A stretch of 64,000 nt of DNA from a virus (IMGVR_UViG_3300032334_002267:9310-73309); one strand, 5' to 3'; shown: positions 3,678 to 64,000, counted from the first letter of the stretch. Program-made: numbers and translations. Notes: generated by a model not told the origin, from the sequence alone.

Positions 3678-4721
3678 ATGGAACATTATGTTTATGTATA
3701 TTTTGATCCTATCATTAATTGTGATGATATTATGAAATTGGGTATTTTTAAGCAACCAATTTATATAGGTAAGGGTAAAGACGGTAGATTTGATCATCAT
3801 TGGAATCAAATAAGATCACATAGAAAGTTAACCAATCCTCTGTTTACTTCGAGGTTAGAATTAATTAGGGATTCAGGAAACGAGCCTATAATTTTAAAAA
3901 TTAGTGAAAATTTAACCGATGGTGAAGCTAAAATTCTTGAGAAGAAATTAATATCTGAAATAGGAAGGAAGATTCATAATAAAGGACCGCTCTTAAATAT
4001 ATCTGAAGGTGGAGATGGTGGCATCACTTGGGTTGGGGAAAATCCAAAAAAAGGAAAAAGTCTAGAAACTCTTTATGGCTATGTCGAATCGGAAAGACTT
4101 AAAAAAATACTCAGTGAATCTGCAAAAAGTAGAACAGGTGATAAAAATCCAATGTTTGGAAAGACCGGAGAAAATTCACCATTGTACGGATTTAAAAGTG
4201 ACGAATCTACTCGTAATAAAATAAGCACTTCTCTTAAAAAATTCTTTAATTCATGTGATCCTGAGTATATCAGTTTAATGGTTAATAAGATGAATCTAGC
4301 TAGAGAAAACGTAGATCCGGTAATAAAGGAAACTTGGTATGCAAAACAATCTGAGATTATGAAGAAGAAATACGAATCCGGTGAAATTTTTACAGAGTCT
4401 CATAGAATCAATCTTAGCAAAAATAATTACAGAAAAAATAATTCGGGCTCTTATGTTTTAAATCATTCAGAAGAAACAAAAAGGAAGATTTCAAAATCAC
4501 TAAAAAACGTAAAATTGTCAGAATCTCATAGAAATAATCTTAAGACCTTTGATATATCTTATGATGATTTAAAGAAACTTATTTCTGATGTCGGTCTTAA
4601 AAGTAAAATAGAATATAGAGAATATATAAAATCTAATAACATAAAAGCACCTATTAGTCCAGGAAAGAAAATATATGGTGAAAAATGGGAAGGCTGGAAA
4701 AAATTTCTAAATAAACGATGA
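3678..4721 (+). mobile_element. Free-standing GIY-YIG (LEM-3-like) homing endonuclease with NUMOD3 motifs and a C-terminal repeat-unit domain
   Basis: YVYVY...IYIGKGK..R, EA..LE..LI..IGR, PLLNISEGGDG; NUMOD3-like GDKNPMFGK and HSEETKRKISKSL; C-terminal YGEKWEGWKKFL. Confidence 0.85.
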
Positions 4722-5350
4722 AAGAAAGAATAAAAAATTTTATAGATTTCACTCTTAATGAAAGAGAACTTCCGGATAGCCAGGGTGAAATCCTGGTTAT
4801 TCTTGGAGCTCCAGGTTCAGGTAAAGGAACTCTTTCTAAGGAGTTAAAGAAGGATTATGAATTTGTACACATCTCCACAGGAGACGTTATTAGAAATTCT
4901 GAAGATCCTGAATTAAAGAAAATCATAGACGGTGGTAATCTAGTGCCTGATGAAATGATGATCAAGATTCTAAGAAAAGAACTTAAAAAATTAAATCCCG
5001 AAGATAATGTTATTTTAGACGGATTTCCAAGAACAATTAAACAAGCTAGAAAGCTAGACTCAATGCTTGGTAAAATGGGATTAGGATTAAATCACGCACT
5101 ATACCTATCTCTTCCTGATGATATAGCTAAAGAAAGAATAAGAGGAAGAGCTAAAAAAGAAGGCAGAAAAGACGATGCCAGCGAAGATATTATCGAAAAT
5201 CGTTTTAAAGAGTATAAAGAAAAAACATTTCCTCTTGTTGACTTCTATAAGAAAAGCAGAAAGCTAATCACAGTTAATGCAGAAGACGGTAAAGATGATG
5301 TGCTGGGTCAGGTAGTTAAAAAATTTGATTTAAAAAAGAAATCTAAATAA
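4718..5350 (+). CDS. adk: Adenylate kinase (short-LID type) with N-terminal leader
   Basis: GAPGSGKGT P-loop, HISTGD, LDGFPRT, GRKDD; ATGA overlap with the upstream stop. Confidence 0.93.
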   Translation: MKERIKNFIDFTLNERELPDSQGEILVILGAPGSGKGTLSKELKKDYEFVHISTGDVIRNSEDPELKKIIDGGNLVPDEMMIKILRKELKKLNPEDNVILDGFPRTIKQARKLDSMLGKMGLGLNHALYLSLPDDIAKERIRGRAKKEGRKDDASEDIIENRFKEYKEKTFPLVDFYKKSRKLITVNAEDGKDDVLGQVVKKFDLKKKSK

Positions 5351-5357
5351 TCTGTTC

Positions 5358-6038
5358 ATGAGCGGTGCTTCTGAGATTTTTGTGAAGGGACTCAAAAACA
5401 AACTAATAGATGAAAAAATCCAGGACGAGTTTAAAAGAAACTTGCTTCAGGATGCCTTAGAGTATATCTTAGAGATTTTTAAAAAATCTGATAACATAGA
5501 GGTAAGAACTATAAGAGATTTTGAGACCAAGGATGTTTGTCTTTTCCTGGACCTTCATTCAAAGATTCCCATAGAGGATTCTTTTTCAGAGTGTTTTTCC
5601 CAGCATAATATAGAACACAAAAAAATCCACCTTGATGATTATAAGTGGGTATTCCAAATAGATCTGGAGGATAAAATAATATCTTCAGGAAATCCACATA
5701 ATCTTTTCTTTGTAGAGATTCATTCCAAAAGGGGAAATTCACAGAAAGTGAAGTTCTCAATCTTCAACAAAGATTTTAATTTTTCAATTTTCGATAAGGC
5801 TTATAACCATTGCAAATTTTGGGTTTTCTCAGATAAGAATTTCGAAAAGTATGAACTCTCTCTGAGATCAATAGATAGGGGTAAGAGAAAACAGAAGTTA
5901 GACACCCCAGATAATAAGTACACCGCATCTTTCCACCTTAATGATTTAGGAGAAATAAATTTAATAGAAATATCCAAGAAAAGAGGAGGAAAATCTAAAT
6001 TCAATACTATAACAGATAAAATTAGAACTAATGTCTAA
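5358..6038 (+). CDS. Hypothetical protein
   Basis: 226-aa ORF tightly packed in the operon; no motif recognised. Confidence 0.75.
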   Translation: MSGASEIFVKGLKNKLIDEKIQDEFKRNLLQDALEYILEIFKKSDNIEVRTIRDFETKDVCLFLDLHSKIPIEDSFSECFSQHNIEHKKIHLDDYKWVFQIDLEDKIISSGNPHNLFFVEIHSKRGNSQKVKFSIFNKDFNFSIFDKAYNHCKFWVFSDKNFEKYELSLRSIDRGKRKQKLDTPDNKYTASFHLNDLGEINLIEISKKRGGKSKFNTITDKIRTNV

Positions 6039-61756: not shown

Positions 61757-61808
61757 TATTAGATATTTTAGTTTGAATATATATCCAGATATAATTCTAA
61801 GATAAAGC

Positions 61809-63389
61809 ATGCAAACAGGATTTAAGACTTTTTTTGAAAAAACCCCGATATTTGAAAGCGTTCAGATGGCAAAAGACTATTTGCTGAAAAGATATGCGGA
61901 GAGTAAAAAAATTAAGACCTCTGAGATCCCGGCGGAAATAAAAGAAAAGATCTTAAAGGATCCTTCTTTTATCAAAATCAGGGACATGGTACAAAAGGAT
62001 CCGGGATACACCCCTCTTTTTGTTAAATTCCTCTATGACCAAAAAGCTTCACTGGAGAATCTTCAAGAGATATATGATTTACTAAAAGAATTTAAGCAAA
62101 ACATCGCCAAAGACCTTCCGATGAAATTGGAAGATTACGGAGCAATGATCCCGACCAAGAAGGATAAAACTCCAGGATGGGAAAAACTACAAGATGATCT
62201 TAATCTCATACCTAGAAAGATAAAGCTCAGAAAGCTCTATAATGGACTTCTCCCAAAAATGAAGGAGGAGTTTGAAAGAGCAACAGAGGAGCAAATTAAA
62301 GATCTAACTGAAATAGCAAACGAAATAGATCGACTTCCAAACAAGGAGGGTGTAGACGAAAAGGGTGATAAAGTCACAAAAAAACCTTGGAGAAGTTACG
62401 AAGAGACATTGGGGAAATATGAAAATAGTCCAATCCCAGGGTATCCTAATGGGTATTATGACGAGTACAGAAATCCAAAAGCTGCTTTTGCTTATCTAAT
62501 CGATGATTCTAAAAAATGGATAGAGGATTGGCAAACCGACGAGGATGAAATAGTTGAAACCATAAAAGGCCTAGGAGCTAAAGTGGGATTTTTATGCAAC
62601 CAAGACGGATACATCGTGGTTTCGGCAAGGAACTCTAAAGCAGTTGATGTTATAGGTGCATCAACCCCTTGGTGTGTAAAGGGCGAAACCCAGTACTGGA
62701 GATATAACGAAGGAAACGTTCAACTAATACTTATCAATAAGAATCTTTCAACAGTAAATGTCAACAGTTTAATTGGACTTACTGTTAATAAGGATCAAAA
62801 CGTTAAAGACGCCTTCGACAAGAATAATAAAACAACACCGGTCAATAAATTAATGAAGACTGGAATTTCGCTGGATAAATTTCTAAAAGGTCTTGATTAT
62901 CCTTCGAATGTGATTGATAAAGTGCTAAGAGAATTTGAAAGAGAGAAATCAATTAAGATAGCTCTAGAAATCTTCTTTAAAGAGGGATCTAAAATGGAAG
63001 TCAACAAAATAGTTTCCTCTCTGGTTAACATCAACAGAGGAATACTGGAAGGAAAATTTTCAGAAGAGGAATGGTCTAAAATAGTCGGTATAGTTTCACT
63101 ACTAGTAAAAGATGAGGAGAATCTAAAGGTATCAGAATTTGTCAAATTCTTTGAGGAGAACGGACTATCAACAGAAAACACCTGGAGAGTTTTTGACACT
63201 ATAGTAAAGAACGACTACACAGAAGAAAGCATGGAAAAAATAAAGCAATCAACAATTGATGCTTTTGAAACTATGGAATATATTCTGTATCACATGAAGA
63301 GTAGAATTACCAATCTGAAACCTTTAGAAATAGAGATCATGAAAAAGGCATTAGATAATAAAGATAACATTTTATCCAAATTCAAATAA
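61809..63389 (+). CDS. Hypothetical protein with leader (possible injected/virion protein)
   Basis: MQTGFKTFFEKTPIFES; IGASTPWCV. Confidence 0.8.
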   Translation: MQTGFKTFFEKTPIFESVQMAKDYLLKRYAESKKIKTSEIPAEIKEKILKDPSFIKIRDMVQKDPGYTPLFVKFLYDQKASLENLQEIYDLLKEFKQNIAKDLPMKLEDYGAMIPTKKDKTPGWEKLQDDLNLIPRKIKLRKLYNGLLPKMKEEFERATEEQIKDLTEIANEIDRLPNKEGVDEKGDKVTKKPWRSYEETLGKYENSPIPGYPNGYYDEYRNPKAAFAYLIDDSKKWIEDWQTDEDEIVETIKGLGAKVGFLCNQDGYIVVSARNSKAVDVIGASTPWCVKGETQYWRYNEGNVQLILINKNLSTVNVNSLIGLTVNKDQNVKDAFDKNNKTTPVNKLMKTGISLDKFLKGLDYPSNVIDKVLREFEREKSIKIALEIFFKEGSKMEVNKIVSSLVNINRGILEGKFSEEEWSKIVGIVSLLVKDEENLKVSEFVKFFEENGLSTENTWRVFDTIVKNDYTEESMEKIKQSTIDAFETMEYILYHMKSRITNLKPLEIEIMKKALDNKDNILSKFK

Positions 63390-63404
63390 AAAGTAAATAT
63401 AAAG

Positions 63405-64000
63405 ATGAGTTACGTTTTATCATACGAAAATCACATCCTAGAAGGTTCTAGGTACTATGGCACTCCAACAGAAAGAACCAAAGAGGTTCTAGACGCTTTT
63501 GGACACACAGACGCAGGAAGAGATTTATACGCTCTTGGCGTTAGAGATGTACCAGAGTTTGAAAAAGTTAGATTTGAAAGAAGAGCTTACGGTCAATCTA
63601 TGCCAAGAACTTTTGTATATAAAGATGGTGGAAAATTTCACATAGAACATTATAAAGGCCAAGAGGTTTACGGAGAAAAATCTTTCGACACCATAGAAGA
63701 ACTTTTCAGACATCTTTGGATGAGATTAGCTAAAAACATTATTCCCGCTTCGCTTATCAGTAAAAGAGAGGCAGAAAAAAGAATAGATCTAGAAACTATG
63801 TTTCCGATTGGATCAAAAGTTTCTCAGGAGGTTTTTCTAGATAGACTAAAGCCCATCATCGGAGGTGACGAATTAGCTCATCCGTCAAACAAAGACCTTG
63901 TTGAAACAGATACAGTTGAGAGACTATTGGATCTCTCCCTGATTGGTAAGATCGAAAAGTATTCTTCGGGAAAAGAGATTAAAGTTGTAACCGACATCTC
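63405..64000 (+). CDS. Hypothetical protein, truncated by window end (not in ORF track)
   Basis: Own translation MSYVLSYENHILEGSRYYGTPTERTKEVL..., open to 64000. Confidence 0.75.
   Translation, partial: MSYVLSYENHILEGSRYYGTPTERTKEVLDAFGHTDAGRDLYALGVRDVPEFEKVRFERRAYGQSMPRTFVYKDGGKFHIEHYKGQEVYGEKSFDTIEELFRHLWMRLAKNIIPASLISKREAEKRIDLETMFPIGSKVSQEVFLDRLKPIIGGDELAHPSNKDLVETDTVERLLDLSLIGKIEKYSSGKEIKVVTDI

Follow-up and report, generated by a model that had tools for sequence, protein, structure and literature searches.

Otherwise unrelated proteins encoded in a 64,000-nucleotide stretch of virus DNA (IMGVR_UViG_3300032334_002267:9310-73309; "the window" hereafter refers to this stretch at its full length) share a short N-terminal leader, which is probably a capsid-targeting propeptide of the type known from phage T4, deployed on a much larger scale. 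Because the leader resembles the T4 head-loading tag, the proteins that carry it are probably packed into the virus particle. The leader consensus is M1-K2-[NHR]3-[IL]4-[KL]5-x-[FY]7-[EDKS]8-[DES]9-F10-x-[NS]12-E13. In short form it is M-K-x-[ILV]-x-x-[FY]-x-x-[FYW], after which there is usually an [ILF]-N/x-E element and next S, A, G, or a similarly small residue. The leader ends at residues 11 to 20.

The window corresponds to bases 9310 to 73309 of a single IMG/VR virus contig (154,247 bp; 37% G+C; CheckV completeness, 55%) from an uncultured giant phage of Bacteroidota-type bacteria. The sequence around its start codons is A-rich, without Shine-Dalgarno sites, the absence of which is typical of Bacteroidota and their phages. 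With gene starts called by the first ATG, the contig encodes 242 proteins. The 87 genes of the window, which lie on both strands from ∼52 kb onward, include a nucleotide-metabolism and replication block with ribonucleotide reductase (RNR), two topoisomerase II subunits, a DNA polymerase piece, and a homing endonuclease. Searches of the "phages" collection with window genes (megablast and tblastn) gave no match, and no relative was found when viral contigs were searched with the protein encoded at 61809. Relatives (250 to 319 kb; at least 92% complete) were reached via orthologs of the protein encoded at 52200. One of them, designated G001, has a length of 289,651 bp and shows synteny with the window; 115 reciprocal best hits link it to the contig. 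Among capsid proteins, that of G001 comes closest to those of Lak megaphages, "huge phages" of 460 to 735 kb, Flavobacterium phage MaF61, and Tenacibaculum phage PTm1, with a more distant likeness to those of T4-like cyanophages. The gene set of G001 agrees with that of freshwater Bacteroidetes phages described as having a "prohead core scaffolding and protease" gene (PMC9723584), and G001 may belong to that clade.

The pattern [ILVMF]xx[FY]xx[FYW], searched for within residues 2 to 14, matched 40 of the 242 contig proteins, about one in six, compared with 5.4 ± 2.2 (maximum, 13) in shuffled N-termini. It was found in 47 of 2,941 internal windows (1.6%; Fisher P = 3e-23) and in 12 of 739 internal windows anchored at Met. 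A first-pass annotation of the window had proposed a motif of this kind in about a dozen proteins; its enrichment over shuffled N-termini and internal windows was confirmed and is larger than first noted. Within the window alone there were 12 matches among the 87 genes versus 1.7 ± 1.2 in shuffles. The register is fixed at residues 4, 7, and 10, because the first hydrophobic residue was at position 4 in 27 of the 40 matches. When a profile was trained only on G001, 46 of 240 contig proteins scored above the 99th percentile of the internal null, where 2.4 were expected. The pattern matches in a thioredoxin (53683) and in two membrane proteins (12392 and 41751) were judged false. Removing membrane-like matches left 35 carriers belonging to 27 unrelated families, and the 13 window proteins stripped of their leaders had no mutual BLASTP similarity at E < 0.05, so the earlier description of the carriers as mutually unrelated holds. 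Carriers outside the window include lysin-like proteins, an AAA ATPase, and one eight-member family of leucine-rich-repeat (LRR)-type paralogs. As also claimed earlier, the replication genes are not among the carriers: RNR, both topoisomerase II subunits, and the DNA polymerase piece all lack the leader.

The presence or absence of the leader is conserved between the contig and G001. In the 115 ortholog pairs, both members have it in 10 and both lack it in 98, so that 108 pairs agree (P = 2e-9); the seven discordant pairs mostly reflect start-call errors. The product of the adenylate kinase gene (Adk; 4718..5350, plus strand) begins with MKERIKNFIDFTLNE followed by RELPD. The best 120 homologs of this protein in a collection of 5.8 billion proteins, many of them on contigs of up to 330 kb, all carry the leader in the form M-x-[KR]-I-K-x-F-x-x-F-x-[IL]-N-E-[RK]-E-L-P-D ahead of the P-loop, and the hydrophobic-N-E element is nearly invariant among them. 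Leader and linker together make up residues 1 to 27, and the Pfam ADK domain (E = 2e-40) starts at residue 28. In an AlphaFold2 (AF2) model built with 40 homolog sequences, residues 25 to 205 are well folded and residues 1 to 22, with a predicted local distance difference test score (pLDDT) of ∼60, lie outside the fold. As judged from this model and from domain boundaries (ADK from residue 28, RimK_N from residue 23 of the ligase described below), the leader is an add-on outside the enzyme folds.

The end of the leader resembles the cut site of a head protease. The first-pass annotation had noted that the aromatic core was often followed by (I/L)xE and a small residue. A hydrophobic-x-E motif was indeed enriched within the first 16 residues, being present in 26 of the 35 contig leaders versus 61 of 190 controls (P = 4e-6), but it is missing from the rest, including the leader of the ADP-ribosyltransferase (ART). 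Similar proportions were found in G001 (29 of 47 leaders versus 97 of 305 controls; P = 9e-5). Across the proteome, hydrophobic-N-E-[SAG] is ∼8-fold denser in the first 25 residues than elsewhere.

The same annotation had invoked a T4 gp21-type prohead protease. Pfam Peptidase_S77 matched above the cut-off in all four near-complete relatives (250 to 319 kb), which share orthologous leader genes, while a search of the source contig gave no match, as the contig is a fragment. In the relatives, the match sits in a protease-scaffold protein of 649 to 676 residues (L020:3277-5307 in G001; also L046, L047, and L048), in which Peptidase_S77 is fused to a scaffold and which is encoded directly upstream of a gene for a gp23-like capsid protein. 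The PTm1 homolog of the protease-scaffold gene is annotated "prohead core scaffolding protein and protease." The portal gene of G001 lies ∼13 kb upstream of the protease-scaffold gene, and several leader genes are found immediately around the head genes. A ClpP-type protease encoded outside the window was a candidate for the prohead protease but was set aside, since the relatives have the S77-scaffold fusion next to the capsid gene to fill that role. The scaffold half contains ∼14 copies of a 14-residue repeat, YSEYLAENLDKSIS, each with one L-A-E site (LAE followed by N), and thus looks designed for cutting into 14-mers; its linkers carry LNES, INEA, INEG, and LNEG. The capsid protein carries LNE followed by S at residue 44. 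The family alignment of this protein starts at that point, and the N and E of the motif do not vary even in PTm1. The LNE, INE, and LAE motifs in the scaffold and the capsid propeptide indicate that the expected substrates of the protease carry the motif found at the end of the leader.

Leader genes also share a promoter-like box, GATATATA. ATATATA, a looser form of this box, was present no more than 40 nt upstream of 22 of the 35 leader genes versus 19 of 207 other genes (P = 1e-11), and in G001 the box was upstream of 27 of 47 leader genes versus 30 of 338 others (P = 1e-13). Of the 11 exact boxes in the window, 8 stand ahead of a leader gene or of the operon that contains it, and thus the leader genes within the replication block each bring their own box. 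On the plus strand, boxes at 7316, 12716, 17914, 36931, and 52187 (7316..52194) stand 5 to 24 nt before the ATG of a leader gene, the one at 52187 being 5 nt from the ATG at 52200; on the minus strand, leader genes are preceded by boxes at 59052-59059 and 61778-61785. Another minus-strand box (56151-56158) precedes a gene at 55128-56129 that resembles a virion structural protein, and a plus-strand box (3653..3660) precedes a homing-endonuclease-like gene (3678-4721; phrog_314), which is located between RNR alpha and Adk and whose stop overlaps the Adk ATG. In G001, GATATATA also precedes the genes for the portal, the protease-scaffold, and several large structural proteins. A phage sigma factor gene is located just beyond the window. 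This distribution suggests that GATATATA is a putative promoter of the structural-gene (late) class.

Short head-loading tags are well known from T4. The T4 capsid-targeting sequence (CTS), MKTYQEFIAE, undergoes a single cut by gp21 and is enough for foreign proteins to be packaged (PMC8442874), and the internal proteins of T-even phages are diverse, with the CTS alone in common (PMC3012670). The leader described here is likewise a short peptide that starts at Met1 of otherwise unrelated proteins. It shares with MKTYQEFIAE the M-K start, an aromatic-x-x-aromatic core, and a hydrophobic-x-E end, as can be seen in MKHIKEYQEFTQE and MIKTFFDKIDE, though these peptides are too short for statistics; MIKTFFDKIDE, a variant found at 61491, is the closest form to the T4 peptide. 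Like T4, the lineage encodes a gp21-family protease together with a gp23-like capsid protein and a gp20-like portal, and an ART is among the carriers, as is Alt, an ADP-ribosyltransferase that is a processed core protein, in T4 (PMC9958956). There are also differences. The leader is ∼3 residues longer than the CTS and keeps to the fixed 4/7/10 register, hydrophobic-N-E is favored as the cut motif, and the protease is fused to a repeat scaffold. Furthermore, the leader is found on ∼15% of the proteome (40 to 50 proteins) compared with a handful of proteins in T4, and among the carriers are metabolic and modifying enzymes of up to ∼520 residues. No description of the leader was found in a literature search, in which one comparative paper on jumbo phages was silent on it.

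By analogy with T4, the tagged proteins would be produced together with the structural proteins, and the N-terminal peptide would dock them into the scaffolding core while the prohead is being assembled. The scaffold-fused gp21-family protease of the lineage would then remove the peptide after Glu, and the mature proteins would remain in the head with the DNA, probably to be delivered by injection into the next host.

A looser parallel is offered by phiKZ, 201phi2-1, and SPN3US, in which a gp21-related protease cuts after Glu (A-x-E or S-x-E), many ejection proteins are packaged in the head, and propeptides are thought to target the prohead; cleavage after Glu is common to T4 gp21 and all of its giant-phage relatives (PMC5694885). 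However, the 8 to 19 processed proteins of these phages mostly have propeptides of >100 residues, with no shared short consensus (PMC5694885), and the leader does not conform to this type of propeptide, defined by a length of >100 residues and A/S-x-E sites. These phages also belong to another lineage and infect another host phylum. A different form of delivery is known from the polyvalent proteins of phages and conjugative elements, the source of the ART-PolyVal domain, which bring ART and other effector domains into the cell with DNA. Polyvalent proteins combine many domains in one giant protein, whereas the effectors considered here are separate proteins that each have a leader and, in many cases, a promoter-like box to themselves.

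Several observations weigh against a capsid-targeting role. Between a quarter and a third of the leaders, that of the ART included, have no hydrophobic-x-E motif within 16 residues. The protease and capsid genes are not on the source fragment, and the cargo proposed for this lineage is predicted from sequence. No cultured relative carries the leader: in PTm1 and MaF61, which have related capsid proteins and served as negative controls, the pattern matched 6 of 316 and 0 of 193 proteins, respectively, and homologs of the leader proteins were not found. The assignment of GATATATA to the late class comes only from its association with structural genes. In G001, where no gene lies between RNR alpha and Adk, Adk has no box of its own, and at least one leader gene may therefore not be late. 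There is no obvious rationale for adenylate kinase as injected cargo, and 40 to 50 cargo species would be far more than in T4.

Other explanations of the leader were weighed against capsid targeting. It is unlikely that the leader is an address tag for some other machine of the late phase, such as a chaperone, a phage ClpP-type protease, a membrane site, or a protein complex. The phage does encode a ClpP-family protease, as well as a protein at 11369 that resembles a J-domain protein by eye, and the Adk gene is placed in a nucleotide-metabolism operon. Some N-terminal motifs that begin with Met, a basic residue, and a hydrophobic residue are recognized by ClpX. However, the leader ends in a T4-type head-protease cut motif that is common to the scaffold and the capsid protein, and leader genes cluster around the head genes of G001 and share the promoter-like box of structural genes. 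A destination in the membrane is also improbable. The leader is acidic or neutral (net charge, ∼0), and in its column profile polar and acidic residues alternate without a hydrophobic run; it has no hydrophobic core of at least 7 residues after a basic N-region and no twin-Arg or lipobox motif. The hydrophobic moment was set aside as circular evidence, since the periodicity is built into the search pattern. The lack of a hydrophobic stretch indicates that the leader is not a Sec, Tat, or lipoprotein signal and makes a membrane anchor unlikely.

It is also quite unlikely that the leader is merely a propeptide for the prohead protease or another protease, for example a latency peptide, with no role in capsid targeting, or that the proteins are degraded or released instead of being retained and injected. 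Besides the aromatic core, the clearest signal in the leader is the hydrophobic-x-E cut site common to the scaffold and capsid protein, and in T4, gp22, gp67, and gp68 are cut to pieces and not retained (PMC9958956). However, a cut site does not need an aromatic core at residues 4, 7, and 10, and some leaders keep the core without the cut site. In the AF2 model of Adk, the leader is a flexible extension that leaves the active site uncovered, which counts against a latency peptide.

Very little probability attaches to conservation at the level of the nucleic acid, either as a coding element at the 5′ end that serves in translating leaderless mRNAs or as the junction of a recombination cassette joined to the promoter box. 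Many boxes end 4 to 7 nt before the ATG, a spacing that is kept in seven orthologs of the 52200 gene and that implies leaderless or nearly leaderless mRNAs, and promoter and leader behave as a portable unit found at scattered sites. However, a second class of boxes lies 18 to 23 nt upstream, and the leader is kept in genes of this class and in genes with no box at all; conversely, there are box-proximal genes without a leader. Where F, Y, I, and L are conserved, synonymous codons are used as they are in the genome (TTT:TTC, 40:16 and 44:25, versus 62% genome-wide), and selection thus acts on the protein, which counts against a signal in the nucleotides. Chance, or descent from a single paralog family, as might be suggested by the eight LRR-type paralogs outside the window that share the leader, is already refuted for all practical purposes by the 27 families among 35 carriers, enrichment P values from 1e-23 to 1e-44, the conservation between orthologs, and the best 120 Adk homologs.

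All twelve N-termini listed by the first-pass annotation are present at the starts given there. Nine of these proteins scored above the 99.9th percentile of the null with the G001 profile and the one starting at 61756 was at the 99.6th, whereas those starting at 61491 and 61809 fell short of the profile; the latter two are ortholog-conserved variants that end in hydrophobic-x-E followed by A or S. A thirteenth carrier, starting at 19899, had been overlooked.

The carriers that were recognized as enzymes include three in addition to Adk. A RimK-type ATP-grasp glutamate ligase (17946..19403, plus strand; Pfam RimK, E = 6e-34; RimK_N from residue 23) has the leader MSSNKVLNFWSFLNE followed by AK, and its ortholog has MPSNRVLDFFSYINE, also followed by AK. 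The first-pass annotation had called this protein a glutamylase/protease. The RimK assignment was upheld, but the protease half corresponds only to a weak Zn_protease-like match in the C-terminal third (PF05618; E = 0.037), which is under the cut-off. The ADP-ribosyltransferase (53961..54512, minus strand) starts with MRYIKLFENF, which had the top profile score in the window (25.6 bits), and the Pfam ART-PolyVal domain (E = 4e-12) begins at residue 12. No hydrophobic-x-E-small site was found downstream of its leader, the sole candidate being LFE followed by N within the leader itself.

The protein at 52200..53651 (plus strand; leader MTNRIHNFSDFSQIFE followed by GA) combines an SGNH-like N-terminal domain, with the motifs IIIGDS and GTNGG, and a C-terminal PTP-fold Cys phosphatase domain with the motif HCAHGADRTGG; this is presumably the phosphatase named in the first-pass annotation, and with Adk and the ART it was confirmed as an enzyme. 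F8 and E16 are invariant in eight aligned copies (the window protein and seven orthologs), which are 53 to 59% identical over the aligned N-terminal part, and the CX5R signature (HCAHGADRTGG) is invariant in the four aligned full-length copies. When a model of the phosphatase domain (pLDDT, 78) was compared with known structures by Foldseek, the matches were to Siw14, AtPFA-DSP1, and TpbA (probability, 1.0; E = 2e-4), so that the nearest solved folds are inositol-pyrophosphate/atypical dual-specificity phosphatases (Siw14 and AtPFA-DSP1) and TpbA. Sequence searches of a protein atlas and the PDB gave no match for either the 52200 protein or the ART.

The other eight of the twelve proteins in the first-pass list had no family match. 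On the plus strand, a 180-residue protein (7345..7887) without a family match has the leader MKHLFEFDSF (18.8 bits), and its G001 ortholog starts with MIHLLEFESFSNF. A 430-residue protein (12743..14035) with no match in Pfam or PHROG begins with MPRINNFSEFEKIYE followed by NE (13.8 bits). The overlooked carrier is a 104-residue protein (19899..20213) with a degenerate leader, MKKLLEMDDLDSL (MKKLLEMDDL...), the G001 ortholog of which has the canonical MRLIIEFDDYLEDD; AATATATA ends 4 nt upstream of the 19899 ATG. A 152-residue protein without a family match (36960..37418) has the leader MSNKIVSFEEF (10.7 bits), and its ortholog aligns from MSRIVSF. A 526-residue protein (61809..63389) carries one of the two variant leaders, MQTGFKTFFEKTPIFE followed by S (..FKTFFE..PIFE, then S); its ortholog, with MMKSLSFRTFFEAVDPLNE followed by S, retains FxTFFE and the hydrophobic-x-E-S site. 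The last carrier on this strand, a 409-residue protein at 63405..64000 that extends past the end of the window, has the leader MSYVLSYENHILE followed by GS (11.0 bits), which is not conserved, as the N-terminus of the G001 ortholog differs.

On the minus strand, a 410-residue protein without a family match (57795..59027) begins with MGIIKSFKAFINE, followed by SIINE and then A (22.2 bits). The short variant MIKTFFDKIDE, followed by AS, belongs to a 470-residue protein (60079..61491), and the ortholog keeps this variant as MIKSFHDRLNE followed by ASLRGNP. A 90-residue Pro/Thr-rich protein (61484..61756) has the leader-like start MRVLTKLDEF. The longest open reading frame (ORF) for this protein opens upstream of 61756, so that the ATG used here is internal to it, yet the G001 ortholog (MAIITKMNEFLAT) begins exactly at this ATG.

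A 60-residue protein at 19417-19599 has no leader, unlike its G001 ortholog, in which a leader-like extension of 12 residues is present (MENLREFGNLSE followed by S); the pair may represent gain or loss of the leader. The gene at 27954-29510 encodes a 518-residue protein that corresponds to phrog_1745, "DNA transfer protein" (E = 5e-151), with a metallophosphoesterase region and no leader. The J-domain-like protein at 11369-12388 is 339 residues long, and its resemblance, recognized by eye, is at its start. Past the window, in window coordinates, the ClpP-family protease gene (101010-102116; L003:17220-18326) is followed by an ORF that resembles SmpB by eye, and two neighboring minus-strand genes (73434-75340; L002:9544-11450) correspond to the two halves of phrog_1314 (HNH endonuclease) and look like a split gene.

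How proteins are localized to the scaffolding core remains mysterious even for T4, according to a 2023 review (PMC9958956). If the capsid-targeting reading is correct, the many natural variants of the leader, together with a fused protease-scaffold that has regular cut sites, would constitute a data set for the recognition of capsid-targeting peptides. Tentatively, the leader might mark an "injectome" that can be read from sequence: ∼15% of the genes in a widespread clade of giant phages of freshwater Bacteroidota, whose products would enter the head and reach the host along with the DNA, new cargo being recruited by a portable unit of late promoter and leader. Such a unit could land anywhere in the genome, even within the block of replication genes. 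The cargo would include adenylate kinase, a ribosome-modifying ligase, an ADP-ribosyltransferase, a phosphatase, wall hydrolases, and LRR proteins. If this is true, the cargo is large and rich in enzymes and greatly exceeds that of T4, with its three internal proteins and Alt, and the proteins that an uncultured giant phage carries into its host could be listed from its sequence alone.

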